From: a candidate division TA06 bacterium
GTDB taxonomy: Bacteria; Ratteibacteria; UBA8468; MWAK01
Assembly (NCBI GenBank): GCA_022704925.1
Contig: JAKJFK010000001.1
Coordinates: 1 to 41,948, forward strand
Direction of reading: 5' to 3'
Length of the DNA stretch: 41,948 bases
In this document: positions 8,743 to 40,232 of the stretch, piece by piece
How positions within the stretch are numbered: position 1 is the first letter of the stretch
Layout: the number at the start of each line of letters is the position of its first letter
Notes under the pieces: model-generated
What the model was told of the DNA's origin: nothing
What the model saw: only the letters and a program-made list of their open reading frames with translations
Database searches by the model: none
Program-made: the position numbers and the translations under genes

Positions 8743-9807
8743 ATGAACCAGCTGGAAATCTTCCGGGCGACGGTTGCGCACCAGCCGCACTCGGGATTTC
8801 TCTACAAGGTCGGTTTCACCAATGACCTCTACCGGCGCCTGCTGGAGCGTTACCGGCTTCCGGCCGACGCCAGGCTTGACGACTACTACGAGTGCTTCCG
8901 GCCGGCGGCGGTCCAGCCGGCGCCGGCCGGGCCGGTGGCGACGCCGGACTTTTCCCGCTACTTCGCCGGCGAGGCGTGGCCGGAGGGCTCGCTGATCAAC
9001 AAGCTGGGCGTGCTGGAGATCCCGGCTCATTTCTACCACTTCACCGGCTACGTCAGCCCGCTGCGGAAGGCCGCCTCCCTGAAGGAGCTGGAGGAGTTTC
9101 CCTATCCCTACGCCGGCGCTTTCGACGAGAGCGGGATGGCCGAAAAGGTCCGGGCGGCGCACGAAGCGGGCAAGGCGGCCATGACCGGCATCGTCCACCT
9201 CTACGAGCATGCCTGGCAGATCCGTGGATACGAGGAGTTTCTCCAGGACATGATCGAGCGGCCGGAGTGGGTCGAGTGCATCCTGGACCGGCTGGCCGAG
9301 CGCAATCTGAAAATCGCCGAGGTCGGCGCCCGGGCCGGCGTCGATTACCTGGTGACCGGCGACGACATCGCCAACCAGCAGAACCTGATGTTCTCCCCCG
9401 GGATGTGGTGGCGCTTCATCGGCTCCCGCTGGGCCCGGATTTACGCGGCCGCCCGCCGGATCAAGCCGGACATCCAGATCTGGTACCACAGCGACGGCAA
9501 CGTTTACTCCCTGATCCCAAAACTGATCGAGATCGGCGTCACCATCCTCAACCCGCTCCAGCCCGAGTGCCTGGACGTGGTCCGGGTCAAGCGTGAGTTC
9601 GGCCGCCACCTGGTCTTCGACGGGACCGTCGGTACCCAGTCCACCTTTCCCTTCGGCACCCCCGAAGAGGTGACGCGGGTGGTCCGGGAGCGGAAACGGA
9701 CGCTCGGCTGCGACGGCGCGCTCATCCTGGCGCCGACCCATACCCTGGAGCCGGAGGTTACGCCCGAGAACATCGAGGCCTTCGTGGCCGCCTGCCGCGA
9801 GGAATAA
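8743..9807 (+). CDS. uroporphyrinogen decarboxylase (URO-D) family protein, paralog 1
   Basis: URO-D/MtaA-like length and layout: ...VTGDDIANQQ..., IWYHSDGNV...ILNPLQPEC, ILAPTHTLEPEV. GGGAGA Shine-Dalgarno-like sequence before the ATG. Confidence 0.8.
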   Translation: MNQLEIFRATVAHQPHSGFLYKVGFTNDLYRRLLERYRLPADARLDDYYECFRPAAVQPAPAGPVATPDFSRYFAGEAWPEGSLINKLGVLEIPAHFYHFTGYVSPLRKAASLKELEEFPYPYAGAFDESGMAEKVRAAHEAGKAAMTGIVHLYEHAWQIRGYEEFLQDMIERPEWVECILDRLAERNLKIAEVGARAGVDYLVTGDDIANQQNLMFSPGMWWRFIGSRWARIYAAARRIKPDIQIWYHSDGNVYSLIPKLIEIGVTILNPLQPECLDVVRVKREFGRHLVFDGTVGTQSTFPFGTPEEVTRVVRERKRTLGCDGALILAPTHTLEPEVTPENIEAFVAACREE

Positions 9808-9829
9808 CCTTGAACCGGAGAGGCCTGTC

Positions 9830-10954
9830 ATGCCGGAGATAAAACCGATCCGCCCCAAGTGGAAGGGGACCATGAGCGACCGGGAGCGCTTCGTCAGCCA
9901 GCTCCATTACCGGCCGGTGGACCGCTCCTTCAACATGGAGTTCGGCTACTGGAACGAGAACTTCAAATCCTGGCCGATCTTCGTGGAGAATGGAATCAAG
10001 AACAACGCCGAGGCGGACCTTTTCTTCAGCTTCGACCGGATCGAGACCATTGGGGGCCGCGTCTGGCTCTCGCCTCCCTTTCCGGCCGGCCTGGTCGAGG
10101 AGACCGCCGCCACCCGGATCGTCCAGAACTCCGACGGCCTGCTGGCCGAGGTGCCCCGGGACGGCCACGACACCATTCCCCATTTCATCCGGGCCTCGGT
10201 GCGTACGCCCGACGACTGGCGCCGCTGCAAGGCCGAGCGTTTCCGCCTCGACGACCCGGCCCGCCGGGTTGACGTGGAATCCCTGAAGCGGGCCCACCCG
10301 GCCGGCCGCGATTACCCCCTGGGCATTCATTGCGGTTCGATGATCGGCCGGATTCGCGACCTGCTTACCATGGAGGGGCTGGTCTACGCCATTTACGATT
10401 ACCCGGAGATGGTCGAGGAGATGGTTGAGACCGCCTGCCGCCTGGTCGAGCATTTCCTGGACCAGGTGCTGGGCCGGATCGATTTCGACTTCGCGGCCGG
10501 CTGGGAGGATATCTGCTCCAAGAGCGGTCCGCTGGTGCCGGTCCGCTTCTTCCGGGAAGTGGTGGTGCCCCGCTATCGGCGCCTCGGCGACCGGTTGCGG
10601 GCGGCCGGCGTCGACATCTGGTATACCGACTGCGACGGCGACGTGCGGCCGCTGCTGCCTTACTTCCTCGAAGGCGGCATCAACTGCATCTTTCCCTTCG
10701 AGGTCAACAGCAGCGGCCACCCGGCCGAATCCCTGGCTAAACACGCTCCCGAACTGCGCATCATGGGCGGCGTGGACAAGCTCCAGCTGCGGAGCGGCCG
10801 GCCGGCCATCGACGCCTGTCTCGAGAGGCTGATCCCCCTGGTGCAGGCCGGCGGCTACATTCCCTTCTGCGATCACCGCTGCCCGCCCGACGTCAACCCC
10901 GACGATTACCTCTACTACCTGGACCGCAAGGAAGAACTCTTCGGGATGAAGTAG
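9830..10954 (+). CDS. URO-D family protein, paralog 2
   Basis: SDRERF...PVDR N-terminus, WYTDCDGDV, GGYIPFCDHRCPPDV. It shares these motifs with the paralogs at 30452 and 39105. An alternative start at 9872 (MSDRERF) matches the paralog N-termini. Confidence 0.8.
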   Translation: MPEIKPIRPKWKGTMSDRERFVSQLHYRPVDRSFNMEFGYWNENFKSWPIFVENGIKNNAEADLFFSFDRIETIGGRVWLSPPFPAGLVEETAATRIVQNSDGLLAEVPRDGHDTIPHFIRASVRTPDDWRRCKAERFRLDDPARRVDVESLKRAHPAGRDYPLGIHCGSMIGRIRDLLTMEGLVYAIYDYPEMVEEMVETACRLVEHFLDQVLGRIDFDFAAGWEDICSKSGPLVPVRFFREVVVPRYRRLGDRLRAAGVDIWYTDCDGDVRPLLPYFLEGGINCIFPFEVNSSGHPAESLAKHAPELRIMGGVDKLQLRSGRPAIDACLERLIPLVQAGGYIPFCDHRCPPDVNPDDYLYYLDRKEELFGMK

Positions 10955-16737: not shown

Positions 16738-17853
16738 ATGAAGAAGGTTTCGATCGTTTCCACCAGCAGGGGAACGGCCGCCGGACTGCAGGAGGCCCTG
16801 GACCGGCTCGGCGGCCTGGCGCGTTTCGTCACCCGGGGCGACCGGGTCATGGTTAAGCCCAACCTGAACGGCGACTGCGTCACCGACCTCGGTCTTACCG
16901 AGGCGCTTATCCGCCTTCTGCTCGATCTGGCGCCGAAGGAGGTCTTTATCGCCGAGTCGACTTTCGGTGACGCCGCCAATACCCGCTTCTTCTTCCAGAA
17001 GAGCGGGTACGCCGAGCTGGCCGGCCGCTATGGGCTCCGGCTGGTCAACCTGAACGAGTCGGAGGCCGTCGAGACGCCGGTGGCCCGGCCGCTGGCGCTG
17101 GAGAAGCTCAAGCTGGCCCGGGAGGTCTTCGAGGCCGACCGCCTCATCAACCTGCCCAAGATGAAGGTCCACTACGCCACCGGCGTCTCCCTGGCCCTGA
17201 AGAATCTCAAGGGACTGCTGGTCGGCGATGAGAAGAAACATTTTCACGACGTCGGCCTCGACCGGGCCATCGTCGACCTGAACAACACCGTTCCGGTCCA
17301 TCTCAACATAGTTGACGCGATCACCGGCATGGAGCGCCTGGGTCCGCATGGCGGCGACCTGGTCCGGCCGGACCTGCTGATCGCCGGCGCCGCGGCCTGG
17401 CGGACCGACTGCGTCGGAATCCGGGTCATGGATTACGAGCTGAAAGAGGTCGGCCACCTGGCCCGGTATCTTGAGGTCAACGGGCTCGACCCGGCGGATG
17501 TCGAACTGGCCGGCCTCGGGATCGAGGCGGCGCGCCATCCCTTCAAGAAGGTGAACATGGCCAACCTGCTGCCGCCGAATATCAGGGTGCGGCAGCGGAA
17601 CGCCTGCTGCGCCTGCCTGAACGCCCTCATCCTCTCCGGCCGATTCCTGGAGCGGCCGCCGGCCGCACCGGTTGAGGTTTGCCTTGGCTCCCTCCCGGAG
17701 GCGTCCGTGGCCGGCTGTCCGCAGATTGCCTTCGGCAACTGCGCCGTCAAAAGGTGCGGTCCGGGTCTGCCGAAGGTCGAAGGCTGCCCTCCTTATCCCT
17801 TCGAGTTGAAGAAGGTGCTGGAAAGAAATTTCAAAAAAGCCGAAGGGAATTGA
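16738..17853 (+). CDS. DUF362 domain-containing protein with Cys-rich C-terminus
   Basis: MKKVSIV...GDRVMVKPNLNG...INLPKMKVH..TGVSLALKNLKG is the DUF362 core. The C-terminal tail is CCACLN...C..C..C. GGAGGA Shine-Dalgarno-like sequence before ATG 16738. Confidence 0.8.
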   Translation: MKKVSIVSTSRGTAAGLQEALDRLGGLARFVTRGDRVMVKPNLNGDCVTDLGLTEALIRLLLDLAPKEVFIAESTFGDAANTRFFFQKSGYAELAGRYGLRLVNLNESEAVETPVARPLALEKLKLAREVFEADRLINLPKMKVHYATGVSLALKNLKGLLVGDEKKHFHDVGLDRAIVDLNNTVPVHLNIVDAITGMERLGPHGGDLVRPDLLIAGAAAWRTDCVGIRVMDYELKEVGHLARYLEVNGLDPADVELAGLGIEAARHPFKKVNMANLLPPNIRVRQRNACCACLNALILSGRFLERPPAAPVEVCLGSLPEASVAGCPQIAFGNCAVKRCGPGLPKVEGCPPYPFELKKVLERNFKKAEGN

Positions 17854-27367: not shown

Positions 27368-27370
27368 CTT

Positions 27371-29577: not shown

Positions 29578-30350
29578 TTTCCCTCCGTGAGGATGATTTT
29601 CAACCCGGCCCGCCGCAGGCGGCTCAATTCCCGCGGGTCGGCGCCCCGGTCGGTGATCAGGCAGTCGATCTTCTTAAGCGTGCCGTAAGGGATGAGCGTT
29701 GTGCGGCCGATCTTGCTGCGGTCGGCCAGCACCACCACCACTTGGCTGATCCGCATGGCGGTCTCCTCGATCCGGGCCGAGTCGACGTCGGTGGTGGTCA
29801 GGCCGTCGGCGGCGGTCAGGCCGTCGATGCCCAGGAAGGCCTTGTTGAGATGAAACTTTTCCAGCTCGGCCAGGACGGCCGGGCTGAAGAAATCGAGCAG
29901 CTCCCGGCGCAGGAAGCCGCCGAGCAGGAAGATCTTCAGGCTTTGATTGCGCTGGAGTTCGCCGGCGGCCGGCAGCGAGTTGGTGACCACGGTGAAGGTC
30001 CGGTCGGTCCGGCCGATGAGCCGGGCCATTTCCCGGGCGGTGGTGCCGGAGTCCAGGAAGATGGTGTCCCCCTCTTTCAGCAGGGCCAGGGCGCGCCGGG
30101 CGATGGCTGCCTTGGCCGCCCGGTTCCGCTCGGCCTTGCGCGGGAAGAGAAATTCGTCCGGAATGTCCTGACGGACCGCCCCGCCGTAGGTGCGGACCAG
30201 GAAACCGGTCTTCTCCAGGCGTTCCAGATCGCGGCGGATCGTGGCCGTGGAAGCGCCGGTCCGGCGGACCAGCGCCGCCACCGAAACCAGGTTTTCCTCT
30301 TCCAGCGCCCGGCGGATCAGGTCGGTCCGGCGCAGTTGGCCGATGCCCAT
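29574..30350 (-). CDS. DeoR-family transcriptional regulator
   Basis: N-terminal HTH VSVAALVRRTGASTATIRRDLERLEKTG and a C-terminal DeoR sugar-phosphate sensor domain (FLDSGTT..., AFLGIDG). ATGA overlap with the downstream aldolase gene. Confidence 0.9.
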   Translation of the reverse strand: MGIGQLRRTDLIRRALEEENLVSVAALVRRTGASTATIRRDLERLEKTGFLVRTYGGAVRQDIPDEFLFPRKAERNRAAKAAIARRALALLKEGDTIFLDSGTTAREMARLIGRTDRTFTVVTNSLPAAGELQRNQSLKIFLLGGFLRRELLDFFSPAVLAELEKFHLNKAFLGIDGLTAADGLTTTDVDSARIEETAMRISQVVVVLADRSKIGRTTLIPYGTLKKIDCLITDRGADPRELSRLRRAGLKIILTEGK

Positions 30351-30451: not shown

Positions 30452-31441
30452 TCAGCCGGCGGCCCGGCGGCACCAGCCGGCCAGGCGGACGAGATAGTCG
30501 CGGTATTCGGCCAGGGAGACGCCCGGGGGTGTCTGGTGGTCCACGCCGGGAACGTAGCCGCCCCCGGCCATGACCGGTCGGAGGCGTTCGAACTCGGCCT
30601 CCACGGCCGCCTCACCCCGGTTGAGGACCATCTTGTCGAAGGCGCCGATGAATCGGTGGCGTGGATGGCGCCGGCGCAGCTCGACGATGTCCACGCCGGC
30701 CTGGTGCTCCAGGGGCAGGAAGGCATCCACGCCGGTCGGCGCGAACCACTCCAGCAGGGGGCCGATCTGGCCGTCGGAGTCGATTACCGCCGGCCAGCCG
30801 AACTCCTTCAGGCGGGGGACGATGCGCCGGTAGTAGGGGGAAATGAACTCGTCGAAGGTCTTGCGGGAGAGCATCGGGCCGTGGTTGTACGACATGTCCT
30901 CGCTGAAGAGGACCAGTTCCGGGCGGATTGTTTGCCGGGCCGCCTCGAGGATCCGGAGGTGGTAATCGGCGAGGTCCTCGATTATCAGGCGCATCGCCTC
31001 CGGGTGATCGTAGAAGGCGTAGAGGTGGGCCTCGATGCCGAAGAGTATGCGCGGAAACCAGAAGGGGCCCTCGAGGATCAGGCCGGTGACGATGTCGCGG
31101 TTTCGCTGGGCGTCGGCCGCTTCGGCCAGCCAGGCGGTGGCCTGGCCGGTGCCGGGGTAGAGGAAGTCCTTGAGGCGCCGGTAGCCTTCCAGGTCGGCGA
31201 TCAGCCGGTCCGCTTTTTCGAGCTGGCCGTACTCGGGGCGCATGGCGCTGAGTTTCCTTATCTGGAAACGGTCCAGTCCGAACCAGTCCTGGATCGCGAC
31301 CACGGCGGTAAGCTCGGCCGGCAACCCCTCGGTCCGCCAGCGCTTGATGGTCTGGTCCCACCAGGGGGCCCACTCGACCACCGGCAGCCGGTCGACCGGC
31401 TGGAATTCGAACGTCCGGGTAAAGCGTTCGCGGTTGGTCAT
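30452..31441 (-). CDS. URO-D family protein, paralog 4
   Basis: MTNRERF...PVDRLP, VIDSDGQIGPLL, GGYVPGVDHQTPPGV. Same subtype as the paralogs at 9830 and 39105. Confidence 0.8.
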   Translation of the reverse strand: MTNRERFTRTFEFQPVDRLPVVEWAPWWDQTIKRWRTEGLPAELTAVVAIQDWFGLDRFQIRKLSAMRPEYGQLEKADRLIADLEGYRRLKDFLYPGTGQATAWLAEAADAQRNRDIVTGLILEGPFWFPRILFGIEAHLYAFYDHPEAMRLIIEDLADYHLRILEAARQTIRPELVLFSEDMSYNHGPMLSRKTFDEFISPYYRRIVPRLKEFGWPAVIDSDGQIGPLLEWFAPTGVDAFLPLEHQAGVDIVELRRRHPRHRFIGAFDKMVLNRGEAAVEAEFERLRPVMAGGGYVPGVDHQTPPGVSLAEYRDYLVRLAGWCRRAAG

Positions 31442-31448: not shown

Positions 31449-32879
31449 TCATCCTTTCACCAGTTCGCGGGGGAAGATGGTGTCCAACCCCAGGATTCCG
31501 GCCGGGTCGAGGACCTTCTTGACCGCCACCATCTGGGCGATGCCCTCCCGGCCGTACATGAGTTCCAGCCACTGGTACTTGATTTTGCCGATCCCGTGCT
31601 CGGCGGCGATGGTGCCTCCCAGCGCGATGACCTTGAGGGCCGCCTCCCGGTAGAGACCGTAGGCCTCCTCCCGTTCGGCCTCGTTCTTCGGGAAGAAGTT
31701 GAAGTGGAGGTGATTCTCGCCGATGTGGCCGAAGAGGACCGTCTCCAGATGGCGGTTGGCGGAACGCATCTCCTGGTAAAAGCGGTAGAGCTCGTGGAAG
31801 TGGCGGCCCGGCACGGCGAAATCAAGCGAGACCTTGAGCGACTTGATGGTTTTGAAGTAGTTGTTGATGTTCTCCGGGAGCCGGTGACGGAAGCCGATCA
31901 GCTTTTCGTAGGCGGCCGGGTCGGCCCCGACCCAGGTATCGACCAGCGGGTACTTCTCCAGGATCTCCAGCCAGGTTTCCAGTTCGCCGGCCAGACCCTC
32001 GACGTAGAAGGCGAACCGGGCTTCGGCCGGGATCTGGGGGAAATCCTGGACCAGGAAGTCCAGGCTGTGCCGGTCGAAATACTCCAGGGAGAGGGTTTCG
32101 AGTTTCCGCTGACCGCGGATCTCCTCCAGCAGCGGCAGCATTCGTGCCTCGTCGGAGAGGAAGAGAAGCATGATCATGCGCGGCGGCAGGGCCGGGATCA
32201 GTTTCACCTCGACCTCGGTGAAGACGGCCAGCGTGCCTTCCGAGCCGATGAAGAGGTCGATGGCGTCCAGGCCCGGGCGCGAGAAGTAACCGGCCGAGCA
32301 CTTGATTTCCGGCGTGCGGTAGTCGGGGATCCGGATCACCTTGTTCCCGATTTCCAGACGGCCGTTGGCATCGGCCCTGACCTCGCCCCGGCGCAGGTCG
32401 ATCACCTCGCCGTCGGAGAGGACCAGGCGCAGGCGGTTTACGTACTGGCGGGTCGGTCCGAAGCGGTAACTGTACTCGCCGGAGGCGTTGGTGGAGACAT
32501 TGCCGGAGATCATGGCCGTGCGTTCGGTGGGGAAGGGCGGATAGAAGCGGCCGACCCGGTCGATCGCCGCCAGGAACTTCTCGACCACCACGCCGGCCTG
32601 GAGAGAGGCCCGCTGCGCGGCTGGATCGATCGTCAGGATGCGGTCGAGCCGTTCCACTGAAATGATGCGGCCGCCGACCGGGATGCGGCCGGCCACGGTC
32701 CCGGTGCCGCCGGCCGAGATGGTGAGCGGCTGTCCGGCCTCACTGCATTCCGTCAGCACCCGGACAACTTCGGATTCGTTTTCAGGCAGATAGAGACCGT
32801 CGGCCGCGCCCCGGCGGAAGTTGGAACTGTCCTCCAGGTAGCCGGCGATTTCTTCCGGAGCGTTCTTATAGATTATCAT
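31449..32879 (-). CDS. FAD-linked oxidase (GlcD/D-lactate dehydrogenase-like, FAD_binding_4 plus C-terminal oxidase domain)
   Basis: LTISAGGTGTVAGRIP, GSEGTLAVFTEVEVKL, GGTIAAEHGIGKIK, about 476 aa. Its stop lies 7 nt before the URO-D paralog start. Confidence 0.85.
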   Translation of the reverse strand: MIIYKNAPEEIAGYLEDSSNFRRGAADGLYLPENESEVVRVLTECSEAGQPLTISAGGTGTVAGRIPVGGRIISVERLDRILTIDPAAQRASLQAGVVVEKFLAAIDRVGRFYPPFPTERTAMISGNVSTNASGEYSYRFGPTRQYVNRLRLVLSDGEVIDLRRGEVRADANGRLEIGNKVIRIPDYRTPEIKCSAGYFSRPGLDAIDLFIGSEGTLAVFTEVEVKLIPALPPRMIMLLFLSDEARMLPLLEEIRGQRKLETLSLEYFDRHSLDFLVQDFPQIPAEARFAFYVEGLAGELETWLEILEKYPLVDTWVGADPAAYEKLIGFRHRLPENINNYFKTIKSLKVSLDFAVPGRHFHELYRFYQEMRSANRHLETVLFGHIGENHLHFNFFPKNEAEREEAYGLYREAALKVIALGGTIAAEHGIGKIKYQWLELMYGREGIAQMVAVKKVLDPAGILGLDTIFPRELVKG

Positions 32880-32901: not shown

Positions 32902-32930
32902 TTGACGGAAACCAAAATTTCTGTTATCTT
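32902..32930 (+). promoter_or_regulatory. candidate promoter TTGACG-17-TATCTT
   Basis: Hexamers read directly from the divergent intergenic region between 32879 (minus-strand gene) and 32968 (plus-strand gene). Confidence 0.35.
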
Positions 32931-32934
32931 TTTT

Positions 32935-32949
32935 GCGTTGGACCAACGC
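32935..32949. promoter_or_regulatory. perfect palindrome GCGTTGG-A-CCAACGC between the putative -10 and the Shine-Dalgarno-like sequence; candidate operator
   Basis: 7-1-7 perfect dyad. A 1-nt loop is too small for an RNA hairpin, so a dimeric repressor site is more plausible. Confidence 0.4.
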
Positions 32950-32967
32950 GAAAAAGGAGATGGAGTG

Positions 32968-33951
32968 ATGATCAAGGTGGCATTGGTTGGCGCTGGTTTC
33001 ATGGGTGGCATGCATTCGGCCTGTTACCAGGCCGTCGAGGGGGCCGAACTGGCCTGGGTGGTGGACACCGACGCGGACCGGGCCGCCAAGCTGGCCGGCC
33101 GGCACGAGGCCCGTCCGACCGTTGACCTGGACGAGGCGCTGGCCGATCCGGCCGTTTCGCTGGTGGATGTCTGCCTGCCGACCGACCAGCACCCGGAGAA
33201 CGTCATCCGGGCCTGCCGGGCCGGCAAGAACGTCATCTGCGAGAAACCGATTGCCCTTACCCTGGCCGAGGCCGACCGCATGATCGCCGCCGCCCGGGAG
33301 AACCGGGTCAGGTTCATGGTGGCCATGGTGATAAGATTCTGGCCGGCTTACCAGCGGTTGACGGAAATTTACCGGAGCGGAGAACTCGGGAAACTGCAGG
33401 CCCTGACCCTGCAGCGGGTCTCTTCGCTGCCCACCTGGACCTGGAAGGATTGGATCCTCGACCGGAAGCGCAGCGGCGGCGCGGTGCTGGACATGCACAT
33501 CCACGATACCGATTTCGCCTACCACCTGCTCGGTCTTCCCCGGCAGATCGAGAGCCGGCTGGCGCCGACCAACCACGGTTTCATCTACTCGGTTTTCAGT
33601 TACCCGGGGACCACGGTGATGATCGAGGGCGGCTGGCACGAGGCCCGGAGCTGTCCTTTCTTCTCGGCCTACGAGGCGGTCTTCGAGAAAGGCGTGGTCA
33701 GTTACGACACCCGGCTGGTCCCGGACTTCACCATCTACCGGGAGGACCGGAAAGAAAACCCGGTTCTGCCCAGCCGCAAGGGGGGCGGCGACAGCGGCGG
33801 AAATATCTCCGACCTGGGCGGTTACTACAACGAGATCGCCTACCTGATCGACTGCCTCGAACGGGGCCGGGAACCCGAACTGGCCAGCGCTCAGAGCGCC
33901 CGCGAATCGCTGGCTCTGCTGCTCCAGGAGCTGGAGCAGGCCGGTCTCTGA
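32968..33951 (+). CDS. Gfo/Idh/MocA family oxidoreductase
   Basis: MIKVALVGAGFMGGMH Rossmann start, the ICEKPIALT motif, about 327 aa. AAGGAGA Shine-Dalgarno-like sequence 7 nt before ATG 32968. Confidence 0.85.
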   Translation: MIKVALVGAGFMGGMHSACYQAVEGAELAWVVDTDADRAAKLAGRHEARPTVDLDEALADPAVSLVDVCLPTDQHPENVIRACRAGKNVICEKPIALTLAEADRMIAAARENRVRFMVAMVIRFWPAYQRLTEIYRSGELGKLQALTLQRVSSLPTWTWKDWILDRKRSGGAVLDMHIHDTDFAYHLLGLPRQIESRLAPTNHGFIYSVFSYPGTTVMIEGGWHEARSCPFFSAYEAVFEKGVVSYDTRLVPDFTIYREDRKENPVLPSRKGGGDSGGNISDLGGYYNEIAYLIDCLERGREPELASAQSARESLALLLQELEQAGL

Positions 33952-34068: not shown

Positions 34069-35586
34069 TCAGCGGGCAAAGGGCCGGGCGTGCCTTCCCA
34101 GGTGCTTGGCCAGGCACCGGTAGTGCTCCAGTTCCTCGGCTTCCAGGGTTCGGTAAAATTCCGTCCGGAACCGGTAGGAACCGTCTTCCGTCCGGGCGGT
34201 GAGGACCGAGCCGAAGGTTACGTGCAGCATCTGCCGGGTATGAAAATCATCGAGGGAAGCTTCCAGGTCTCCGTTTGAGAGTGCGTTCTCCGGCGGCACC
34301 CGGTCGATTTTGGCCGAGACGTGGTAGGAGGCCCGGTCGGTCTCGTAACGTTCGCGGGCGAAACGGTAGATGGCCCGATAAAGTTCCGGGTTGGTGTCGG
34401 CAATGGTCCGGACCGCCTCCAGATAGCTGGTGCCGGCCGTCTTCAGGTGAACCCTTCCTTCGGTTACCTCGGCGATCGTCGGGTAGAGGCTGAATTTATC
34501 CGAGCCGGAGTGGATGGAAATCTTGTAATTCCCGAGCTGCCGGGCCACCGCCCGGTGGCGGATCAGCTCCTTCCGGAATTCATCCAGGTTACCGATGTAG
34601 TCCACCCCTTTTTCGAAGCGGCCGACGAAGCGCGGCGCCAGGCTGACCCAGGTCACCCCGGCCCGGGCCAGTTCCGAGGCCACGAAATAATGTTCGCCGA
34701 CGGTGGTGGGCGTCAGTGTTTCGTCGACCGACATCTCGAGTTCGAAGGTGCGTCCGGCCGCGGCCGATTTCAGGGTCTGGTACATCATCACCGTGTGTTT
34801 GATGGCCCGGCCGTATTTGACGGCGGCCCGGAGCAGTTCGGTCTCCGAAAACTCCAGGCTGCTTCCGCCGGGCAGTTTTACCTTGCCGGACAGGTATGAT
34901 TTGCGCAGGCGGTCCAGGTTGAGGTCGGGCGCCTCGGCCCCCAGGCCGCGGCACTTGGAAAGCAGCGTTTCGGGGGCGTCGGTGTCGGCCTGGTTGTCAA
35001 CCTGGTCGCCGGGGTCGATCGTAAAAAGGGTGAAGCCGGCCCGCAGGCAATCGGCCAGATCGGCCGGGGTCTTGAGATGGTCGGCGTCCGAACCGAAGCC
35101 GTCGGTGTAGCCGGTCTGGAAGATGCCCCAGAGGGCCTCGTCCATGACCTGCTGCGGGTGGCGGCCGGTGCGAGCCATCTCCCGGATGGACTGCTGGGCC
35201 AGGTAAGGAAAGAGGTTGGTTCCTTCGATGGCCCGGATGTGGCCGGGCGTGGCCAGGCCGAGCCGGTCGCCCAGGCCGATCGAGGTCCGCCCTTCCGAAC
35301 GGACCGGCCGCAGGTAATCGAGGGCCTTCCGAAGCGCGGCGGCGTTGGCCGGCGTGAGTTCTCCCACCAGTATCCGGCCGGCGATCATCGTTCCTTCAAA
35401 GCCGGCCCGGCGCAGGTCAGTCTCATCCCCTTTGACCAGCAGCTGTTTCCCCTTTTCGGAACGGGCCAGCGCGTAGGTTCGCCCGGCCGTGGCCACCGTG
35501 GAATCCGGGTAGACCTCCAGGTTCGTGAACTCCGCCTGGAGTTCGGTCGTTCGGCCGGGTGCCTTCTGAAATTCAAGTTCGGCCAT
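34069..35586 (-). CDS. uxaE: tagaturonate/fructuronate epimerase (UxaE) family protein
   Basis: GLGDRLGLATPGHIRA, FGSDADHLK, FTIDP, SVDETLTPT, KISIHSGSDKFSLYP, HLKTAGTSYLEA. These match my memory of the Thermotoga UxaE family at about 500 aa. Confidence 0.75.
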   Translation of the reverse strand: MAELEFQKAPGRTTELQAEFTNLEVYPDSTVATAGRTYALARSEKGKQLLVKGDETDLRRAGFEGTMIAGRILVGELTPANAAALRKALDYLRPVRSEGRTSIGLGDRLGLATPGHIRAIEGTNLFPYLAQQSIREMARTGRHPQQVMDEALWGIFQTGYTDGFGSDADHLKTPADLADCLRAGFTLFTIDPGDQVDNQADTDAPETLLSKCRGLGAEAPDLNLDRLRKSYLSGKVKLPGGSSLEFSETELLRAAVKYGRAIKHTVMMYQTLKSAAAGRTFELEMSVDETLTPTTVGEHYFVASELARAGVTWVSLAPRFVGRFEKGVDYIGNLDEFRKELIRHRAVARQLGNYKISIHSGSDKFSLYPTIAEVTEGRVHLKTAGTSYLEAVRTIADTNPELYRAIYRFARERYETDRASYHVSAKIDRVPPENALSNGDLEASLDDFHTRQMLHVTFGSVLTARTEDGSYRFRTEFYRTLEAEELEHYRCLAKHLGRHARPFAR

Positions 35587-35596: not shown

Positions 35597-36841
35597 TTAG
35601 CGTTTGCGGTAGTCGGCCAGCGGAACGTGATCCTGGATGCGGATCGCCCGGCCCCTGGCGATGGAACGGTTGGCCGCCGCCCCGATCAGCATCGAGATGG
35701 CGCCCTCGTATGAACCGGCCATGTGGTTCAGGGGATCGGGCAGGTCGCCCCGGAAGAGCATCCGCCGCAGCCGGGTATCGCCGCCACCATGGCCGCCGGT
35801 GGCCTTGGGCACCTGGTAGGTGATCCGCTCGTTCCGCCGGTTGAAGAAGGTGACCGTCTGGTGCGTGCCGCCGGTGCTGTCGCCGCTCTGGTACTCGGCG
35901 ACCTCGATCCGGCCGTCGGTGCCGCTGACGCTGGCCCGGAATCCCTCGTAGGGGGAGTGGGCGACCAGCGAGTAAGTCAGCAGGGCGCCGCCGGAATACC
36001 GGACGTTCACGCTCATGCTGTCCTCGATGTCGATTTCTTCGGAGAAGACGCAGCCGTCGCGGTGGTACCCGTCATGTTTCTCCGCTTCCAGGTACATCTT
36101 GACCATTCTTTCGTTGGCGGTGAGATCGAAGTAAAACTCGCAGCTGGAACGGTGGCGGCAGGTCAGGCAGCGCTGGCCGCGTTTTTTCCGGTTCGGCCCG
36201 TAAAAGCGCAGGCTGCCGAAGGCGTTGACCACTTCCGGTTCTTCGCCCACCCACCAGTTAATGGCGTCAAAATGGTGGGTGGCCTTGTGGACCAGCAGCC
36301 CGCCGGAGTTTTCCTTGCGCCGGTGCCAGCGGCGGAAATAATCGGCGCCGTGGCGGGTGTCCAGCAGCCACTCGAAATCGACGTTGAGGATGGTGCCGAC
36401 CAGGCCGTCCCGGAGCAGTTCCCGGATCCTGGTTATGTAGGGGGTGAACCGGTAATTGAAGGTGACAATGACCTTGCGGCCGGTGCGGGCCTCGGTCTCC
36501 AGGATCTGGCGGCACTTCTCCAGGTCAACGGTCATCGGCTTCTCGGTGATCGCGTCCAGGCCGGCCTCCAGGGCCCGGATGATGTACTCGTGGTGGTACC
36601 GGTCGACCGTGGTGACGATGACCGTTTCCGGCCGGGTCTCCCGGATCATCCGGTCGTAATCGGTGTAGGTCCGGCAGTCCAGCCGGCAGAATTCCTTGAC
36701 GTAGGCGGACCGGACCGGGTTGGGGTCGAAGATGCCGACCACCTCGGCGACATCGGCGTACTCTTCCTTGAGTGGATAGGCGTACATGCCCAGGCCCCGG
36801 CCGCTGGCACCGACCAGGGCGTAGCGTTTGCGCTGCTTCAT
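35597..36841 (-). CDS. Gfo/Idh/MocA family oxidoreductase (long form)
   Basis: RYALVGASGRG Rossmann start, the ITEKPMTV motif, LVHKATHHFD, about 414 aa. Confidence 0.85.
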   Translation of the reverse strand: MKQRKRYALVGASGRGLGMYAYPLKEEYADVAEVVGIFDPNPVRSAYVKEFCRLDCRTYTDYDRMIRETRPETVIVTTVDRYHHEYIIRALEAGLDAITEKPMTVDLEKCRQILETEARTGRKVIVTFNYRFTPYITRIRELLRDGLVGTILNVDFEWLLDTRHGADYFRRWHRRKENSGGLLVHKATHHFDAINWWVGEEPEVVNAFGSLRFYGPNRKKRGQRCLTCRHRSSCEFYFDLTANERMVKMYLEAEKHDGYHRDGCVFSEEIDIEDSMSVNVRYSGGALLTYSLVAHSPYEGFRASVSGTDGRIEVAEYQSGDSTGGTHQTVTFFNRRNERITYQVPKATGGHGGGDTRLRRMLFRGDLPDPLNHMAGSYEGAISMLIGAAANRSIARGRAIRIQDHVPLADYRKR

Positions 36842-36884: not shown

Positions 36885-37922
36885 CTACAGGTACTTCTTG
36901 AAGAAGTCGAAGGCCCGGCGACCGCTGAAGGCGTGCGGTCCGGGATGGATGTCGGTCCAGAGATCGGCTGCGGCCTCGGCGGCCCGGTAGATCCGTTCCA
37001 CGCCCCGGTAGCCCTCGAGCTGGTCCTGGATAAAGAAGCAGGTGTCGTAGATGCCCATTTCCAGCAGCAGTGGCCGTGGGGCGATGAGTCCGGCGATATC
37101 GTCGGTGTCGAAGTATCGGTAGAGGTTGGGGACCATCTGGGAGCCGCACCAGTTGGCGCGCTCGATGGCAAAGCCCCGCCAGGAATTCACATAGCCGATG
37201 ATATCGGCGGCCCGGATGCGCGGTTCGACGGCCGTGGTGAAGGTGGTCATGGTGCCGCCCTGGGAGAGGCCCATCATCCCGATCCGGTCCGGATCGACCT
37301 CGGGCCGGGTCTGGAGATAGTCGACGCAGCACTTCATGTCCCAGATATTCAAGGTCAGCGTGTAGACACCCAGCATGGCTCCCTTGAGAAAATTGATATT
37401 GCAGGGATCGCGGCCGGGGAAGGGGTCGGCGCCGTCGCGCCGTTCGCCGAAGACGCGCAGGTCGGGCGCCAGGGTGATAAAGCCGGCCCGGGCCATCTGC
37501 TCGGCGTAATTATAATTGTGCGCGGCGATGTTCTGCTCGACGGCCGCCGAGCTCCGGAATCCGGCCACGGCATCCTTGCCGTGGAGGCCGTGGCCGTGGC
37601 TGCAGAGAATGGCCGCCTGCTTACGGTCGGCGGCCATCCGGCGCGGCTTGAGCAGTAGGCAGGGAACCGACATGAACGCCTCGGAATTGAGCACTACCCG
37701 TTCCCGGACCAGATCGCCCTCGGTTACCGAGTATTCCACCTCGGCTTGCAACGGCACCGGTTTCGGGAAATCGCCCAGCAGTTCCAGCAGTTTCGGCAGC
37801 GCCTTTTTCCGCCAGGTCCGCCAGTCGTTCCGGCTCCGGCCCCGGAAAGCCAGCAAAGGTTTCCAGTCTTCGAATTTCCGGTTCCAGTAAGACTGCATCG
37901 AGAAATTCCGTCGGGCGGACAT
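36885..37922 (-). CDS. alpha/beta hydrolase, acetyl-xylan-esterase/dienelactone-hydrolase-like
   Basis: CSHGHG, nucleophile elbow GMMGLSQGG, and a C-terminal His region, about 345 aa. Confidence 0.8.
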   Translation of the reverse strand: MSARRNFSMQSYWNRKFEDWKPLLAFRGRSRNDWRTWRKKALPKLLELLGDFPKPVPLQAEVEYSVTEGDLVRERVVLNSEAFMSVPCLLLKPRRMAADRKQAAILCSHGHGLHGKDAVAGFRSSAAVEQNIAAHNYNYAEQMARAGFITLAPDLRVFGERRDGADPFPGRDPCNINFLKGAMLGVYTLTLNIWDMKCCVDYLQTRPEVDPDRIGMMGLSQGGTMTTFTTAVEPRIRAADIIGYVNSWRGFAIERANWCGSQMVPNLYRYFDTDDIAGLIAPRPLLLEMGIYDTCFFIQDQLEGYRGVERIYRAAEAAADLWTDIHPGPHAFSGRRAFDFFKKYL

Positions 37923-37954: not shown

Positions 37955-39061
37955 TCAGGCGGGCCGGTAGTTGTTGACCAGGTCGGCGACGATCTTCACC
38001 CGGTCGAAATCGGCGTCGGATGGAACATTGTCGCTCATGCCGAGCGCGAAAAGGTTTCCATGCGGCACCCGGGGCAGCAGGTCTTTAATATAGGCGGCCA
38101 GGTCCCGGCGGTCGCCGCCCTGGGGGCACATCAGGACCGAGGGTACGCCGCCCTGGATGACCACCTCCGGCCCGACCGCCTCCAGCGCTTCGGGAATGGT
38201 CAGCCGGGCCATCGGGGCCACCGAGACCGCCTCGATCACATCCAGGCCGCTGCCGGGCACCAGTGGCAGCAGGTGTTCGGTTCGGCCGCACCAGTGGCCC
38301 TGGTAGATCTTGCCGGCCCGGTGCAGGATTTCGGCCACCCGGCGGAAGTAAGGGACGGCCAGGCGCTTGAAGAGGTTCGGCGGCGTGGTCCACTCGTCCA
38401 TATTGTCGCCCTGCTGAACGACCAGCGCCGGTCCGCTTGCCAGCAATTCGGCCCCGGCCAGATTAACCCGCGCGATCACCTCCATCAGTTCCTCGACCAG
38501 CTCCGGGTAATCGGCGTAGAGATAGATGCCGGCCTGGTAACCGGCTTCCTGCTTGGCAAAATGTATGTAAGGGAAGCAGAATGGAAGTCCGACCAGAGAG
38601 ATGCCGTCCTCGCCCACTTCCGCTTCGCTCTCGAGGAAAGAAGTGAAATCGGCCTTGAGGCTGGTATGCTCGAAGAGGTATTTGACCACCGGGATATCCT
38701 CGGCCCGCTTGATCCGGTGCTCCATCAGGTAACAGGTGCGTGCCGAGTCGTCGGCGTACTCGTGCAGGGTGCTGACGGTTCCGACCGGCGTCCGGTATTC
38801 GGTCCGGCGCCGCCGCCCGTCATCCCGCTCGGTCACCTCGACCGTCGGGTCCAGCACCGGCTCCAGGACGTTGGTGCGGACCCAGAGGGTGGCACCGACC
38901 GCCCGGACCAGGTCGTTCCGGCTCAGCCCGGCGTAGGCTTCCGGTATCCGGCCGTTGGCCCGGTTGACCCGGTACCAGTAGTCGAAATTAGGCACGAAGG
39001 GCAGGCGGTCGCCGTTGCCCCTGGTCAGAATACGGGTATAATTTTCCCGCCTGGTAAGCAT
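37955..39061 (-). CDS. URO-D family protein, paralog 5 (retains an H-x-C-G motif)
   Basis: MLTRRENY...GDRLPFVP N-terminus, QQGDNMDEW, YQGHWCGRTEHLLP, LFALGMSDNVP. Confidence 0.8.
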   Translation of the reverse strand: MLTRRENYTRILTRGNGDRLPFVPNFDYWYRVNRANGRIPEAYAGLSRNDLVRAVGATLWVRTNVLEPVLDPTVEVTERDDGRRRRTEYRTPVGTVSTLHEYADDSARTCYLMEHRIKRAEDIPVVKYLFEHTSLKADFTSFLESEAEVGEDGISLVGLPFCFPYIHFAKQEAGYQAGIYLYADYPELVEELMEVIARVNLAGAELLASGPALVVQQGDNMDEWTTPPNLFKRLAVPYFRRVAEILHRAGKIYQGHWCGRTEHLLPLVPGSGLDVIEAVSVAPMARLTIPEALEAVGPEVVIQGGVPSVLMCPQGGDRRDLAAYIKDLLPRVPHGNLFALGMSDNVPSDADFDRVKIVADLVNNYRPA

Positions 39062-39104
39062 GGGTTTTCTGCCTCGCGGTTTTTCAGGCCGGCCGCGGCC
39101 TTTT

Positions 39105-40232
39105 TCAGAGCCAGCCGGTCAGTTTCGCCAGTTCCCGGCTGTAATGGATGAAGTCGGCCCAGGAGATGTCGGGCGGTACGCCGTGGTCACACGAGGGAAC
39201 GTAGCCGCCGTCAACCAGCATGGGCGGTATCACGCGCTGGAGTTCGGCCTCGATCACCGCTCCGCCCTTGGCGATGGCCCGCTTGTCGATGCCGCCGTGG
39301 TAGGCCATGCTGCGGCCGAACTGCTTCCGGTAGGCGGGCAGGTCATTGCCGGCGGCCACTTCGATCGGCTGGCAGGAGTTAATGCCCGACTCGATCCAGA
39401 GCGGAATCAGTTCGCCGATGTAGCCGTCGGAGTCGACGTCGATGATCCGGCAGCCGCTCCGGCGGGCCGCCGCCGACCAGGTCTGCCAGCAGGGCATCAG
39501 GAAACGGCGGGCCATGGCGGGTGAGATCATGCTCTTGGCCTTATAGGCCATGTCCTCGGAGAAACCGAAATGATCCGGGGCGACGCGGGCAAAGATCCGG
39601 TCCAGGATCGTCATGATGAAATCGCGCCAGAAGAGGGCCATCTCCTCGACCAGTTCCGGGTCCTCGGCCATGAAGAGGCAGAGATTTTCAAAGCCGCACC
39701 AGTTGCGCAGCTGCCAGAAGGGGCCGTTGAACCAGATGCGCAAAACGTAATCCCGGTCGGCCAGCTGCCGGCAGCGGACCTCGAAGTCCTCGGGAAAACG
39801 GCCGGGCGTGTCGGGGTTGAAGCGTTTTTTCATGGCATCCCAGTCGGCCCGGTTTTCGACCGGATGGCGGTGGTACTTGCGGGTTACGAAGTCCTTGGCG
39901 CTGCGCAGGTAGGTAAAATCGTACCGGTCGGAGACCTCGACGATCTCGCCCCGGATGGTCTGCATCAGGTAATGGCCGTCGCGGTGCTCAAGAATCTTCT
40001 CTTCGAAGGCCGGCATCAGGTCGAAGTTGACCCCCAGGTTGACCTGCGGCTTGGTTGTCTCCGGTTGGATCCCCAGCGTTTCCATCAGGACTTCAGACCA
40101 GGGGCGGTCGGCCGGGAGGCCCTCCTGGTGCCAGCGCTTGAGCGTGGATTCGCGGGGGCCGCCCGGCAGCAGCGGTAACCGGTCCGGTTTGCCAAAGGTG
40201 AGCGCCTCGATCCATCTTTCTCTTGCGTTCAT
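39105..40232 (-). CDS. URO-D family protein, paralog 6
   Basis: MNARERW...PDRLPL, IDVDSDGYIGELIP, GGYVPSCDHGVPPDI. Same subtype as the paralogs at 9830 and 30452. Confidence 0.8.
   Translation of the reverse strand: MNARERWIEALTFGKPDRLPLLPGGPRESTLKRWHQEGLPADRPWSEVLMETLGIQPETTKPQVNLGVNFDLMPAFEEKILEHRDGHYLMQTIRGEIVEVSDRYDFTYLRSAKDFVTRKYHRHPVENRADWDAMKKRFNPDTPGRFPEDFEVRCRQLADRDYVLRIWFNGPFWQLRNWCGFENLCLFMAEDPELVEEMALFWRDFIMTILDRIFARVAPDHFGFSEDMAYKAKSMISPAMARRFLMPCWQTWSAAARRSGCRIIDVDSDGYIGELIPLWIESGINSCQPIEVAAGNDLPAYRKQFGRSMAYHGGIDKRAIAKGGAVIEAELQRVIPPMLVDGGYVPSCDHGVPPDISWADFIHYSRELAKLTGWL

Follow-up and report, generated by a model that had tools for sequence, protein, structure and literature searches.

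We identified six genes for UroD-fold proteins, here designated U1 to U6, among approximately 35 genes in a 41,948-nt stretch of DNA (the window) from a candidate division TA06 bacterium (GCA_022704925.1, contig JAKJFK010000001.1, forward strand), a number of PF01208 genes far beyond chance expectation. They are old members of the UroD superfamily whose functions have diverged; they fall into four uncharacterised clades, and neither HemE nor a canonical methyltransferase of the MtaA type is among them. In the clade formed by U2, U4, and U6, the metal site looks re-tooled to Asp/His ligands rather than lost. Our preferred reading, which we put forward tentatively, is that these proteins are corrinoid-independent, metal-dependent cytoplasmic enzymes that act on oxidised sugars or uronates.

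Table 1 UroD-fold genes and surrounding features of the window.
Feature	Position	Strand	Description	Basis
U1	8743..9807	+	UroD-superfamily paralog, nearer MtaA than HemE	PF01208, 63.3 bits
U2	9830..10954	+	D-x-D-G/D-H clade (TDCDG, CDH)	PF01208, 24.7 bits
U3	17911..19053	+	Most divergent of the six UroD-fold paralogs (MHTDG)	PF01208, 38.9 bits
U4	30452..31441	-	D-x-D-G/D-H clade (IDSDG, VDHQTPP)	PF01208, 51.2 bits
U5	37955..39061	-	UroD-fold paralog with H-W-C-G	PF01208, 47.2 bits
U6	39105..40232	-	D-x-D-G/D-H clade (VDSDG, CDHGVPP)	PF01208, 22.3 bits
Xylose-isomerase-like TIM-barrel protein	3697..4461	+	AP_endonuc_2, weakly IolE-like	Pfam and NCBIfam
559-aa protein	7033..8712	+	Family unassigned; directly upstream of U1	
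DUF362 protein	16738..17853	+	Directly upstream of U3	PF04015, 143 bits; 371-aa public gene call
DeoR-regulated sugar unit	24613..30350	-	Context	Pfam and NCBIfam
GlcD-like FAD-linked oxidase	31449..32879	-	Directly upstream of U4	Pfam and NCBIfam
Second Gfo/Idh/MocA oxidoreductase	32902..33951	+	Strand opposite to first	Pfam GFO_IDH_MocA, 98 bits
UxaE-family epimerase	34069..35586	-	Tagaturonate/fructuronate-type	PF16257, 533 bits
Gfo/Idh/MocA sugar dehydrogenase	35597..36841	-		Pfam
Esterase	36885..37922	-	Alpha/beta-hydrolase, Abhydrolase_7; weak AXE1 and glucuronoyl-esterase similarity	Pfam
Promoter-like site cluster	40298..40348	-	Upstream of U6	Consensus match only

All six ORFs lie where a preliminary description had placed URO-D-fold genes, and all matched PF01208 in a Pfam scan, five of them above the curated gathering score of 23.9 bits and U6 slightly below it. 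Pairwise identity among the paralogs does not exceed 28%, with U2, U4, and U6 grouping together and U1 (nearer MtaA), U5, and U3 each standing apart. A search with family HMMs did not find a seventh paralog in the window. No signal peptide was obvious in any of the six N-termini when read by eye, which would place the enzymes in the cytoplasm. U1, U4, and U6 each have orthologs of 50–66% identity in many phyla, all unnamed. Those of U6 (58–66%) occur in Omnitrophota, Armatimonadota, Planctomycetota, Latescibacterota, Anaerolineae, Bacillota, and others, and those of U1 (53–66%) are spread over several phyla, one coming from the isolate Caldicoprobacter guelmensis; U4 homologs number thousands, the closest being approximately 50% identical.

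The preliminary description had left room for the D-x-D-G/D-H subtype to fall inside HemE or the MT2 methyltransferases. The six proteins lie outside both, as NCBIfam scores were at most 47 bits, compared with cut-offs of 235–400 for HemE and MtaA-type families. Structure models told of a shared fold: the AlphaFold models of U6 (pLDDT 93; E ~1e-9) and U1 (pLDDT 90) matched HemE and MtaA only in Foldseek, and the top matches of U1 were 4ay7 and 4ay8 (TM ~0.65). MtaA 4ay7 is the best structural match of U1 and among the best for U6. The MT2 proteins MtaA, MtbA, and MtsA have the UroD (beta/alpha)8 fold in common with the window proteins but are only 11–16% identical to them. HemE shares the fold, the Pfam family, and an N-terminal P-x-D-(R/V)-x-P element, and the Asp of FDTW/SEDM and the His of LGHG/CDHG are common to both. 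The HemE pocket is Arg-rich, whereas the window proteins carry conserved acidic pocket residues and have no heme-pathway context.

U2, U4, and U6 are mutual best matches (26–27% identity, E ~1e-32), the remaining pairs being far weaker, and the subtype proposed previously therefore stands. The clade comprises 842 clusters (50% identity, E<=1e-30), and its HMM scored 394 bits for U2 as compared with 2.9 bits for U3. Every motif quoted previously was found in the translations, namely SDRERF..PVDR, TDCDG, and GGYIPFCDHRCPP in U2; NRERF..PVDR, DSDG, and GGYVPGVDHQTPP in U4; ARERW..KPDR, DSDG, and GGYVPSCDHGVPP in U6; and GHWCG in U5. The N-terminal RER..P-x-DR element is, however, not specific to the subtype, with variants of it also present in U3, U5, and further paralogs as well as in CdmB and HemE. 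The near-invariant signature of the clade consists of E-D, D-x-D-G, P-x-E, D-K, and D-H plus an Arg: among 139 diverse members (median identity to U6, 33%), E226, D227, D267, D269, G270, P289, E291, K317, D349, H350, and R176 are each kept in at least 131. Strand prediction puts these residues at, or just past, the ends of successive barrel strands.

In alignments, D-x-D and D-H of the clade fall on the three zinc-ligand positions of MtaA, where invariant Asp/Asp/His is found in place of His/Cys/Cys. The metal site therefore appears to have changed its ligands, rather than to have disappeared from U2, U4, and U6. Potential metal ligands are present at all three positions in U1, U2, U4, U5, and U6. 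U1 has His/Asp/His (YHSDG ... PTH); in a weak sequence match to 4ay7, H-S-D lies opposite H-I-C and T-H-T opposite G-C-G, a placement with which paralog and HemE alignments agree, and H249, S250, D251, G252, and H333 are invariant among 26 orthologs. Comparison of the U6-clade and U1-family profiles with hhalign (probability, 98.5%) aligned DSDG with HSDG and CDH with PTH. U5 has His/Cys/Asp, the Asp of GMSDN corresponding to the third MtaA position in the paralog and HemE alignment, and an Omnitrophota ortholog of 59% identity keeps both HWCG and GM[SG]DN. For U3, the third position is uncertain in the alignment. The zinc-free methyltransferase CdmB differs, its S-F-Q-G being aligned opposite D-S-D-G in a match to the U4-family profile with an E value of only 0.31.

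The six genes are arranged in at least four transcription units: the unassigned gene with U1 and U2, DUF362 with U3, the FAD oxidase with U4, and an array led by U6 and continuing with U5, the esterase, Gfo, and UxaE. U2 starts 23 bp downstream of U1, and U4 begins 7 bp downstream of the FAD oxidase. The neighbours named in the preliminary description (Abhydrolase_7 esterase, two Gfo/Idh/MocA genes, UxaE, and GlcD-like FAD oxidase) were all recovered; the esterase showed no obvious signal peptide when its N-terminus was read by eye. A 365-aa minus-strand ORF at 32866–33963, which had no family or structure match, was set aside as a shadow of the second Gfo/Idh/MocA gene. The gene upstream of U1, said to encode a glycoside-hydrolase-like protein, is real; its only family match, GH20b, is sub-threshold (E 4e-4), no PDB sequence match was found, and the public gene call carries no Pfam entry. 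Embedding among carbohydrate genes holds for U4, U5, and U6 but is a poor description for U1-U2, which are flanked by argH and a lysA-like gene, and for U3, which follows the DUF362 gene and is adjoined by a low-GC methylase island. U3 starts at ATG 17911 or, alternatively, TTG 17896, and the public gene call (380 aa) is consistent; its PF01208 match spans nearly the full model, and it gave no NCBIfam match and no significant PDB sequence match. The DeoR-regulated unit encodes DeoR, a DhnA/DeoC-type aldolase, an AraA-like isomerase, an FGGY kinase, and a class-III aminotransferase, and the strongest promoter-like site of the region (30389–30360) lies upstream of DeoR.

We surveyed 80 U6-ortholog loci and 80 U4-ortholog metagenome loci (+/-10 kb each, 1.63 Mb in total); 37 of the U6 loci were well flanked, having 3 kb or more of sequence on either side. 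The Gfo, esterase, UxaE, and xylose-isomerase-like TIM (XylTIM) families of the window recur among the U6 loci, at least one of them being present in 14 of the 37. Gfo domains were the most frequent Pfam family among immediate neighbours of U6 orthologs, and Gfo orthologs (590–652 bits) were co-directional and mostly directly adjacent at 8 of 80 loci; as the most recurrent neighbour, Gfo was found in 6 of the 37 well-flanked loci (~16%). Esterase homologs occurred at 8 of 80, including a Planctomycetota locus (L007) where a 298-bit homolog adjoins the U6 ortholog. UxaE homologs adjoin U6 and Gfo at three loci (L015/L177, L020, and L026), and XylTIM orthologs (224–258 bits) lie 1–3 kb downstream of U6 orthologs at six Anaerolineae/Chloroflexota loci. 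The Omnitrophota locus L177 contains the whole U6, U5, Gfo, UxaE, and Abhydrolase_7 set. Other contexts of U6 include Zn-ADH-FGGY kinase-class II aldolase-U6 in Latescibacteria, GalK/AP_endonuc_2/sulfatase/GH42-like genes in Armatimonadota, and a CE15-like esterase in Bacillota; one Omnitrophota context of U1 is GH172-Amidohydro_2-U1. Paralogs of different clades repeatedly adjoin each other. The U6 signal is only moderate. Neighbourhoods of U4 were highly variable, with no conserved neighbour across 80 loci and no conservation of its pairing with the FAD oxidase. Both the low frequency of Gfo and the variability around U4 count against the function that we prefer.

The main alternative is that the proteins are corrinoid-dependent methyltransferases whose carrier protein (and activase) is encoded elsewhere and shared among many paralogs, with the D-x-D-G/D-H clade as substrate-specific MTI and U1 and U5 as MtaA-like partners; anoxic O-demethylation of methylated sugars or uronates would be an example. 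We regard this as unlikely, albeit a serious contender. To our knowledge, the characterised members of PF01208 other than HemE are corrinoid methyltransferases (PMC10418091, PMC13222342), so that the prior favours methyl transfer and counts against our preferred reading. MtaA/MtbA/MtsA, OdmB/VdmB/MtvB/MtoB, CmuA, and CdmB all have the UroD fold, and U1 is the paralog closest to MtaA in both sequence and fold. The U1-U2 and U5-U6 pairs could reflect MTI/MTII pairs, which also speaks against a corrinoid-independent function, and substrates such as 4-O-methyl-glucuronate would be in keeping with the CE15-like or Abhydrolase_7 esterases found beside U6 orthologs. OdmB, VdmB, MtvB, MtoB, and CdmB (PMC13222342), UroD-fold methyltransferases that serve as MTI in O-demethylase and dehalogenase systems, resemble the window proteins in superfamily, bacterial hosts, absence of zinc from some members, and a typical multiplicity of paralogs per genome. 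Given that UroD-fold methyltransferases without zinc exist (CdmB and a Moorella O-demethylase; PMC13222342), and that zinc is thus dispensable in some MTIs, the missing H-x-C...C is no argument against a corrinoid methyltransferase, as it had been taken to be. At one locus (L008), four paralogs of window types, a 50%-identical U4 ortholog and U2-like, U1-like, and H-S-C-G-type proteins, are tightly arranged around a canonical DxHxxG corrinoid protein, as in OdmB-type systems and contrary to our preferred reading.

L008 is the single exception. Carrier proteins and activases have been described as "frequently colocalized" with corrinoid methyltransferases (PMC10418091), and in OdmB-type systems the cluster or genome also encodes the corrinoid protein, an MTII, and an activase, whereas no corrinoid protein was adjacent in the 160 surveyed loci or in three U1-ortholog contexts. 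A Pfam scan of all plausible genes detected no heme-pathway, B12-binding, MtaB/MttB, or activase domains in the window, and neither phmmer with a canonical query nor a DxHxxG..SxL..GG regex found a corrinoid protein among its ORFs, in agreement with the preliminary description. Neither RACE activase nor pterin-type MTII was found in the window or in the Pfam-annotated contexts. Unlike MtaA, MtbA, and MtsA, the window proteins have bacterial hosts, and the window showed no genes for methanogenesis. According to record titles, U6 orthologs also occur in Gemmatimonas, Poribacteria, and Planctomycetaceae, mostly aerobic lineages, and Co(I) attacks alkyl methyl ethers far less readily than aryl methyl ethers. 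Type I mlp gene clusters, which encode MtaA-like proteins, likewise group several UroD-superfamily paralogs in non-methanogens, with a function that is only proposed and methyl-sulfur or methyl-selenium compounds as proposed substrates (PMC10418091); the window proteins have no such partners and lie mostly among sugar genes.

Slightly less probable still is that the six genes are functionally unrelated and share no pathway, having arisen by a genome-wide expansion of a versatile TIM-barrel family with incidental carbohydrate neighbours. The low identity and four clades, the separate transcription units with differing neighbours, the unconserved surroundings of U4 orthologs, and the position of U1-U2 among amino-acid biosynthesis genes would all be expected, but recovery of the U6-U5-Gfo-UxaE-Abhydrolase_7 set in another phylum, the repeated adjacency of different-clade paralogs, and contexts dominated by sugar dehydrogenases, TIM isomerases, and kinases argue otherwise. 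That one or more of the six is the true HemE of the organism, for heme or siroheme-related tetrapyrroles, is highly improbable despite the PF01208 matches, the top rank of UROD among Foldseek matches of U6, and a weak match of the U4-family profile to Pseudomonas aeruginosa HemE (E 1.5e-4), given that U4 alone matched TIGR01464 (hemE; 17.8 bits versus a cut-off of 303), identity to Escherichia coli HemE is 13–21%, the substrate-binding motif WMMRQAGR is missing from all six, and the window has no other heme-pathway gene.

The observation in the preliminary description is thus confirmed and its interpretation partly supported, the two reactions it put forward, O-demethylation and uronate decarboxylation, being speculative. 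Oxidation-assisted sugar and glycoside modules, such as DgpA-DgpBC and levoglucosan LgdA/LgdB, combine Gfo/Idh/MocA proteins with xylose-isomerase-like TIM proteins, and Gfo/Idh/MocA and AP_endonuc_2 TIM-barrel proteins similarly recur beside U6 orthologs. The Gfo of the window, whose distant matches include DgpA, levoglucosan dehydrogenase, and glucuronide 3-dehydrogenase, is nevertheless only distantly related (46–64 bits), and we know of no UroD-fold component in these systems; such modules may be linked to UroD-fold proteins. In our preferred reading, the zinc site that MtaA builds with soft thiolate ligands would have become a hard-ligand divalent-metal site. The enzymes would convert an imported sugar derivative once the neighbouring NAD-dependent dehydrogenase (Gfo/Idh/MocA or Zn-ADH) had oxidised it, and their substrate would most likely be a keto-sugar or uronate. 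The likeliest reactions would be decarboxylation of a beta-keto uronate, beta-elimination (of a methoxy group, for example), or isomerisation, with the esterase, UxaE-type epimerase, and xylose-isomerase-like TIM proteins acting before or after the UroD-fold step.

All six open reading frames that had been assigned the uroporphyrinogen decarboxylase (UroD) fold, here designated U1 to U6, matched the Pfam family PF01208, and every motif quoted in the preliminary description was found in the translations. Five of the proteins scored above the gathering score of 23.9, with U6 lying 1.6 bits under it at 22.3 bits (E = 7.5e-5). Comparison of AF2 models of U6 (pLDDT 93) and U1 (pLDDT 90) with the PDB by Foldseek yielded exclusively UROD and MtaA as top matches (E values of 1e-9 to 1e-10, TM scores of approximately 0.6–0.67), and the presence of six UroD-fold proteins was thus confirmed. 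A seventh copy was not detected in the window by a family HMM search. A sequence search of the PDB gave nothing usable for U6, U5, U3, the 559-aa protein encoded upstream of U1, or a minus-strand ORF at 32866–33963. The latter was dropped as a gene, being a high-GC shadow of a plus-strand Gfo/Idh/MocA gene without a family match of its own.

Only U4 reported a match to the HemE family TIGR01464 (equivalog cut-off of 302.95 bits), with a score of 17.8 bits. The W-x-M-R-Q-A-G-R motif of UROD binds substrate carboxylates. Alignment with E. coli HemE, to which U1–U6 are 13–21% identical, revealed that this NH2-terminal motif is missing in all six proteins and that the preceding P-x-D-x-x-P element alone is common to them. 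The low NCBIfam scores, together with the lack of the MRQAGR motif, led us to reject HemE identity. For the MtaA/MtbA families (TIGR01463, NF040654, and NF041608, with cut-offs of 235–600 bits), the best scores were the 46–47 bits of U1, and U3 and U6 gave no match; canonical MtaA identity was rejected on these scores and on the ligand residues described below. CdmB (9rui), the sole characterised substrate-side methyltransferase (MTI) compared, matched the U4-family profile with an E value of 0.31 and scored 6.9 bits on the clade HMM over a 110-residue fragment. By sequence comparison, none of the six belongs to HemE or to the canonical MT2 enzymes, all of their NCBIfam scores falling well short of the HemE and MtaA/MtbA cut-offs, and the clade formed by U2, U4, and U6 therefore does not fall inside either group.

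Pairwise BLASTP identity among U1–U6 was at most 28%, and the six proteins are, as judged from their sequences, ancient paralogs. The subtype proposed for U2, U4, and U6 proved to be one clade, with mutual matches at E values of approximately 1e-32 and scores of 313–445 bits on the clade HMM, compared with 93 bits for U1, 33 for U5, 23 for E. coli HemE, and 3 for U3; MtaA and CdmB were scored on this HMM as fragments only, taken from printed alignments. The NH2-terminal R-E-R..P-x-D-R element put forward as a mark of the subtype did not hold up as such, given that HemE, CdmB, U3, U5, and other paralogs carry variants of it too. Profile comparison showed the U1 family to be homologous to the U2/U4/U6 clade (hhalign probability of 98.5%), and this family is nearer to MtaA than to HemE. 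The window samples four uncharacterised clades of the UroD superfamily.

To compare active sites, we aligned U1 with MtaA (4ay7) by HMMER, which placed H-S-D of U1 on H-I-C of MtaA and T-H-T on G-C-G. The D-S-D-G and C-D-H motifs of the clade fall in the same columns in paralog and profile-profile alignments. The three zinc-ligand positions, which are H/C/C in MtaA, are thus H/D/H in U1; D/D/H in U2, U4, and U6; H/C/D in U5 and in its 59%-identical ortholog; and H/D in U3, in which the third position is uncertain. Zinc-free CdmB has S-F-Q-G at the first motif. The His-x-Cys...Cys zinc site of MtaA/MtbA is not matched in full by any of U1–U6. The earlier statement that the subtype lacks this site is literally true, but it overlooks the Asp/Asp/His ligand swap, and the missing site has no diagnostic value, since some UroD-fold methyltransferases are free of zinc (PMC13222342). 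Residues R176, E226, D227, D267, D269, G270, P289, E291, K317, D349, and H350 were each retained in at least 131 of 139 diverse full-length clade members (median identity to U6 of 33%), and in the U6 model they occupy the ends of successive strands or the positions immediately following. The clade signature is sharply defined and near-invariant and would re-use the MtaA metal site with different predicted ligands. The residues and their placement in the model suggest that the clade has a putative divalent-metal site with hard ligands, set in an acidic pocket of the sugar type.

The gene map of the window was based on Pfam and NCBIfam scans together with public gene calls for the same contig (GCA_035341535.1, DAOQVL010000002.1). 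A ROK-family gene is located just upstream of PFK, beyond the window edge. The G+C content is approximately 66%, with a low-GC island at 12–16 kb (0.52–0.56, compared with approximately 0.66 around it). The methylase of this island is a 132-aa remnant accompanied by different small ORFs in two sister contigs (L171 and L173) and is intact in a third (L172), and the island looks like a strain-variable restriction-modification-like cassette. The starts of the plus-strand Gfo/Idh/MocA gene and the divergent FAD oxidase gene are separated by approximately 22 bp. U6 and DeoR are each preceded by promoter-like sites, which are consensus matches only. No obvious signal peptide was apparent in any of U1–U6. 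The carbohydrate setting previously ascribed to the six genes is real for U4, U5, and U6 and less clear for U3 and for U1 and U2, the last two being flanked by argH and lysA.

Features of the window, with minus-strand units listed in order of transcription
Feature	Coordinates	Strand	Remarks
PFK	111–1040	+	Truncated by window start; 400 aa in full contig
Transketolase, PRAI		+	After PFK
Xylose-isomerase-like TIM protein (XylTIM)	3697–4461	+	
AIRS-family protein, ArgH		+	
559-aa protein	7033–8712	+	No family assigned; precedes U1
U1	8743–9807	+	
U2	9830–10954	+	Followed by LysA-like PLP decarboxylase
Low-GC island	12300–16300	+	Dcm, Vsr, HNH
Dcm C5-cytosine methylase	12998–14218	+	Low-GC island
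Vsr	~14.2–14.6 kb	+	Low-GC island
HNH endonuclease	14611–15543	+	Low-GC island
Bact_hydrolase (PF20603), Zn_ribbon_2 protein, DUF362 protein, U3	15758–19053	+	After low-GC island; first three directly precede U3
U3	17911–19053	+	
dCache histidine kinase, response regulators, HD-domain protein		+	After U3
U6	40232–39105	-	
U5	39061–37955	-	
Abhydrolase_7 esterase		-	
Gfo/Idh/MocA	36841–35597	-	
UxaE		-	
Second Gfo/Idh/MocA	32902–33951	+	Between minus-strand units
GlcD-like FAD oxidase		-	
U4	31441–30452	-	After FAD oxidase
DeoR, DhnA-type aldolase, AraA-like isomerase, FGGY kinase, class-III aminotransferase		-	

We surveyed 80 loci containing U6 orthologs (985 kb, taken from within 10 kb on either side of the ortholog). 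Gene calling in the surveyed loci was crude and produced clusters of antisense shadow ORFs on high-GC loci, so the analysis was based on hits confirmed by homology and on Pfam scans. Orthologs of the minus-strand Gfo/Idh/MocA gene (590–652 bits) were present in 8 of the 80 loci at a threshold of at least 300 bits, a looser count of 16 having taken in distant paralogs, and they were co-directional with and usually abutted the U6 ortholog. Esterase homologs were found in eight loci, XylTIM orthologs in six, and UxaE in three. Thirty-seven loci had 3 kb or more of sequence on each side, and 14 of these contained at least one of the four partners. Among 132 immediate U6 neighbours, Gfo domains were the most common family, with additional URO-D paralogs and AraC regulators ranking next. 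The module of the window is repeated in the Omnitrophota locus L177, which contains U6 and U5 orthologs, Gfo, UxaE, another URO-D protein, and Abhydrolase_7. A diversity-generating retroelement (bAvd, reverse transcriptase, and target proteins with an FGE-sulfatase domain) and a ParE-type toxin-antitoxin pair lie between the U6 and U5 orthologs in this otherwise syntenic module (L177:5508–10036, JAZDPL010000039.1).

Other contexts of U6 orthologs comprised Zn-ADH, FGGY kinase, class II aldolase, and U6; GalK, AP_endonuc_2, sulfatase, a GH42-like protein, and U6; and URO-D, U6, and a CE15-like esterase, with Abhydrolase_7 adjoining U6 elsewhere. A U1 ortholog was found after GH172 and Amidohydro_2. 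Amidohydro_2 (PF04909) also adjoins URO-D paralogs in two unrelated genomes (L175:12354–15424 and L176:7207–9056) and occurs among the U6 neighbours, and it may be a further recurring partner. The XylTIM orthologs lie 1–3 kb downstream of U6 orthologs in six loci from Anaerolineae/Chloroflexota (L071, L077, L079, L080, L083, and L089). Extracellular solute-binding proteins are encoded in some of these loci, and a very large sensor kinase (approximately 1220 aa) ends just upstream of U6 in L077, L079, L080, and L083. No conserved neighbour of U4 orthologs was detected across 80 metagenome loci. The FAD oxidase–U4 and GH20b-like–U1 arrangements were rejected as functional pairings because neither is kept elsewhere.

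The preliminary description had reported no heme or corrinoid partner in the window, and Pfam scans, phmmer searches with a canonical corrinoid protein, and motif regex searches likewise detected no B12-binding, MtaB/MttB, activase, or heme-pathway domain there. Nor was a corrinoid protein (PF02310/PF02607) found within 10 kb of the orthologs at 160 loci (1.63 Mb; phmmer at E ≤ 1 or regex) or around three U1 orthologs whose surroundings were annotated with Pfam, and a corrinoid protein is therefore not a consistent neighbour of these genes. Gene clusters combining a corrinoid protein with an acceptor-side methyltransferase (MTII), an activase, or both were missing from the window and the 160 loci. 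The exception among approximately 170 loci was L008, which harbours a canonical corrinoid protein (DLHDIG) and no other part of such a system. In this locus, closely spaced genes (L008:4451–10005) encode a U1-like protein (divergently oriented), a U2-like protein (35% identity), an H-S-C-G-type paralog, the corrinoid protein, and a U4 ortholog (50% identity). The cluster is preceded by genes for a PAS histidine kinase and a sigma-54 response regulator. The clades may be corrinoid dependent, with the carrier protein normally encoded elsewhere; alternatively, the carrier may serve the zinc-type paralog, with the others adjoining it since paralogs cluster, as they do in the window. We gave more weight to the second explanation because the genes for corrinoid methyltransferases are usually found together with those for carrier proteins and activases (PMC10418091).

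With the clade profile as query, 842 clusters (50% identity) were retrieved from 1.84 billion representatives at E ≤ 1e-30, and 5402 at the looser limit of E ≤ 1e-10. The clade is distributed among little-studied phyla including Omnitrophota, Armatimonadota, Latescibacterota, Planctomycetota, and Anaerolineae. Homologs of U6 number in the thousands, with at least 567 relatives in species-representative genomes, and U6 orthologs with 58–66% identity occur in these groups as well as in Bacillota, Kiritimatiellae, Atribacteria, and others. Orthologs of U4 are approximately 50% identical, and those of U1 53–66%, the latter including a protein of the isolate Caldicoprobacter guelmensis (57% identity; L174:9007–12396, JAFBDW010000003.1). 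Upstream of the gene for this protein is one for a shorter URO-D paralog of the H-S-C-G type (297 aa), and downstream is one for a Zn-dependent alcohol dehydrogenase; the organism, a cultured xylanolytic thermophile, is tractable for experiments. Wherever a source names these proteins, the label is "hypothetical" or "uroporphyrinogen decarboxylase (family protein)". Our literature search found no paper on the U1–U6 clades and no description of the clade signature or its dehydrogenase-linked context. U1–U6 are new, uncharacterised variants inside a known superfamily.

The best-supported reading, which we hold tentatively at somewhat under even odds, is that U1–U6 are corrinoid-independent, metal-dependent cytoplasmic enzymes that act on a dehydrogenase-oxidised sugar derivative. 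It builds on the fold, the clade structure, the conserved residues, the ligand correspondence, the recurring neighbours, and the absence of a nearby corrinoid protein, and it would add to them metal binding, corrinoid independence, a substrate class, and a reaction type. The adjacent NAD-dependent dehydrogenase would oxidise the sugar derivative and the UroD-fold enzyme would then act on the product, by decarboxylation of a beta-keto uronate, by elimination of methoxy or another beta-elimination, or by isomerisation. The esterase, the UxaE-type epimerase, and the xylose-isomerase-like TIM proteins may work in the same route. That the six are instead corrinoid methyltransferases with a distant carrier protein is unlikely: the arrangement in L008, with a U4 ortholog and paralogs of the window types around a canonical corrinoid protein, favours this explanation, although no such protein was detected in the window or the 160 loci and these systems usually co-localise (PMC10418091). 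Slightly less probable is that U1–U6 are functionally unrelated paralogs with no common pathway, and an identity as HemE can be dismissed as extremely improbable on NCBIfam scores far below the cut-off and the missing WMMRQAGR motif.

If the corrinoid-independent reading is followed, the D-x-D-G/D-H clade of U2, U4, U6, and their relatives might represent a third UroD-fold chemistry, neither tetrapyrrole decarboxylation nor corrinoid methyl transfer, a proposal about which we are slightly more guarded. This chemistry would be the corrinoid-independent, hard-metal-dependent decarboxylation, demethoxylating elimination, or isomerisation of keto-sugars or uronates made by the dehydrogenase, and would take place in cytoplasmic glycan catabolism. 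Present understanding of the UroD superfamily comes chiefly from HemE and the corrinoid methyltransferases. Should U1–U6 prove to be methyltransferases served by a corrinoid protein encoded at a distance, this would suggest that methylated sugars are demethylated under anaerobic conditions, a step for which we know of no established enzymes. If they are corrinoid-free sugar enzymes, they would represent a new reaction type in glycan catabolism, and thousands of "uroporphyrinogen decarboxylase" annotations would be corrected.
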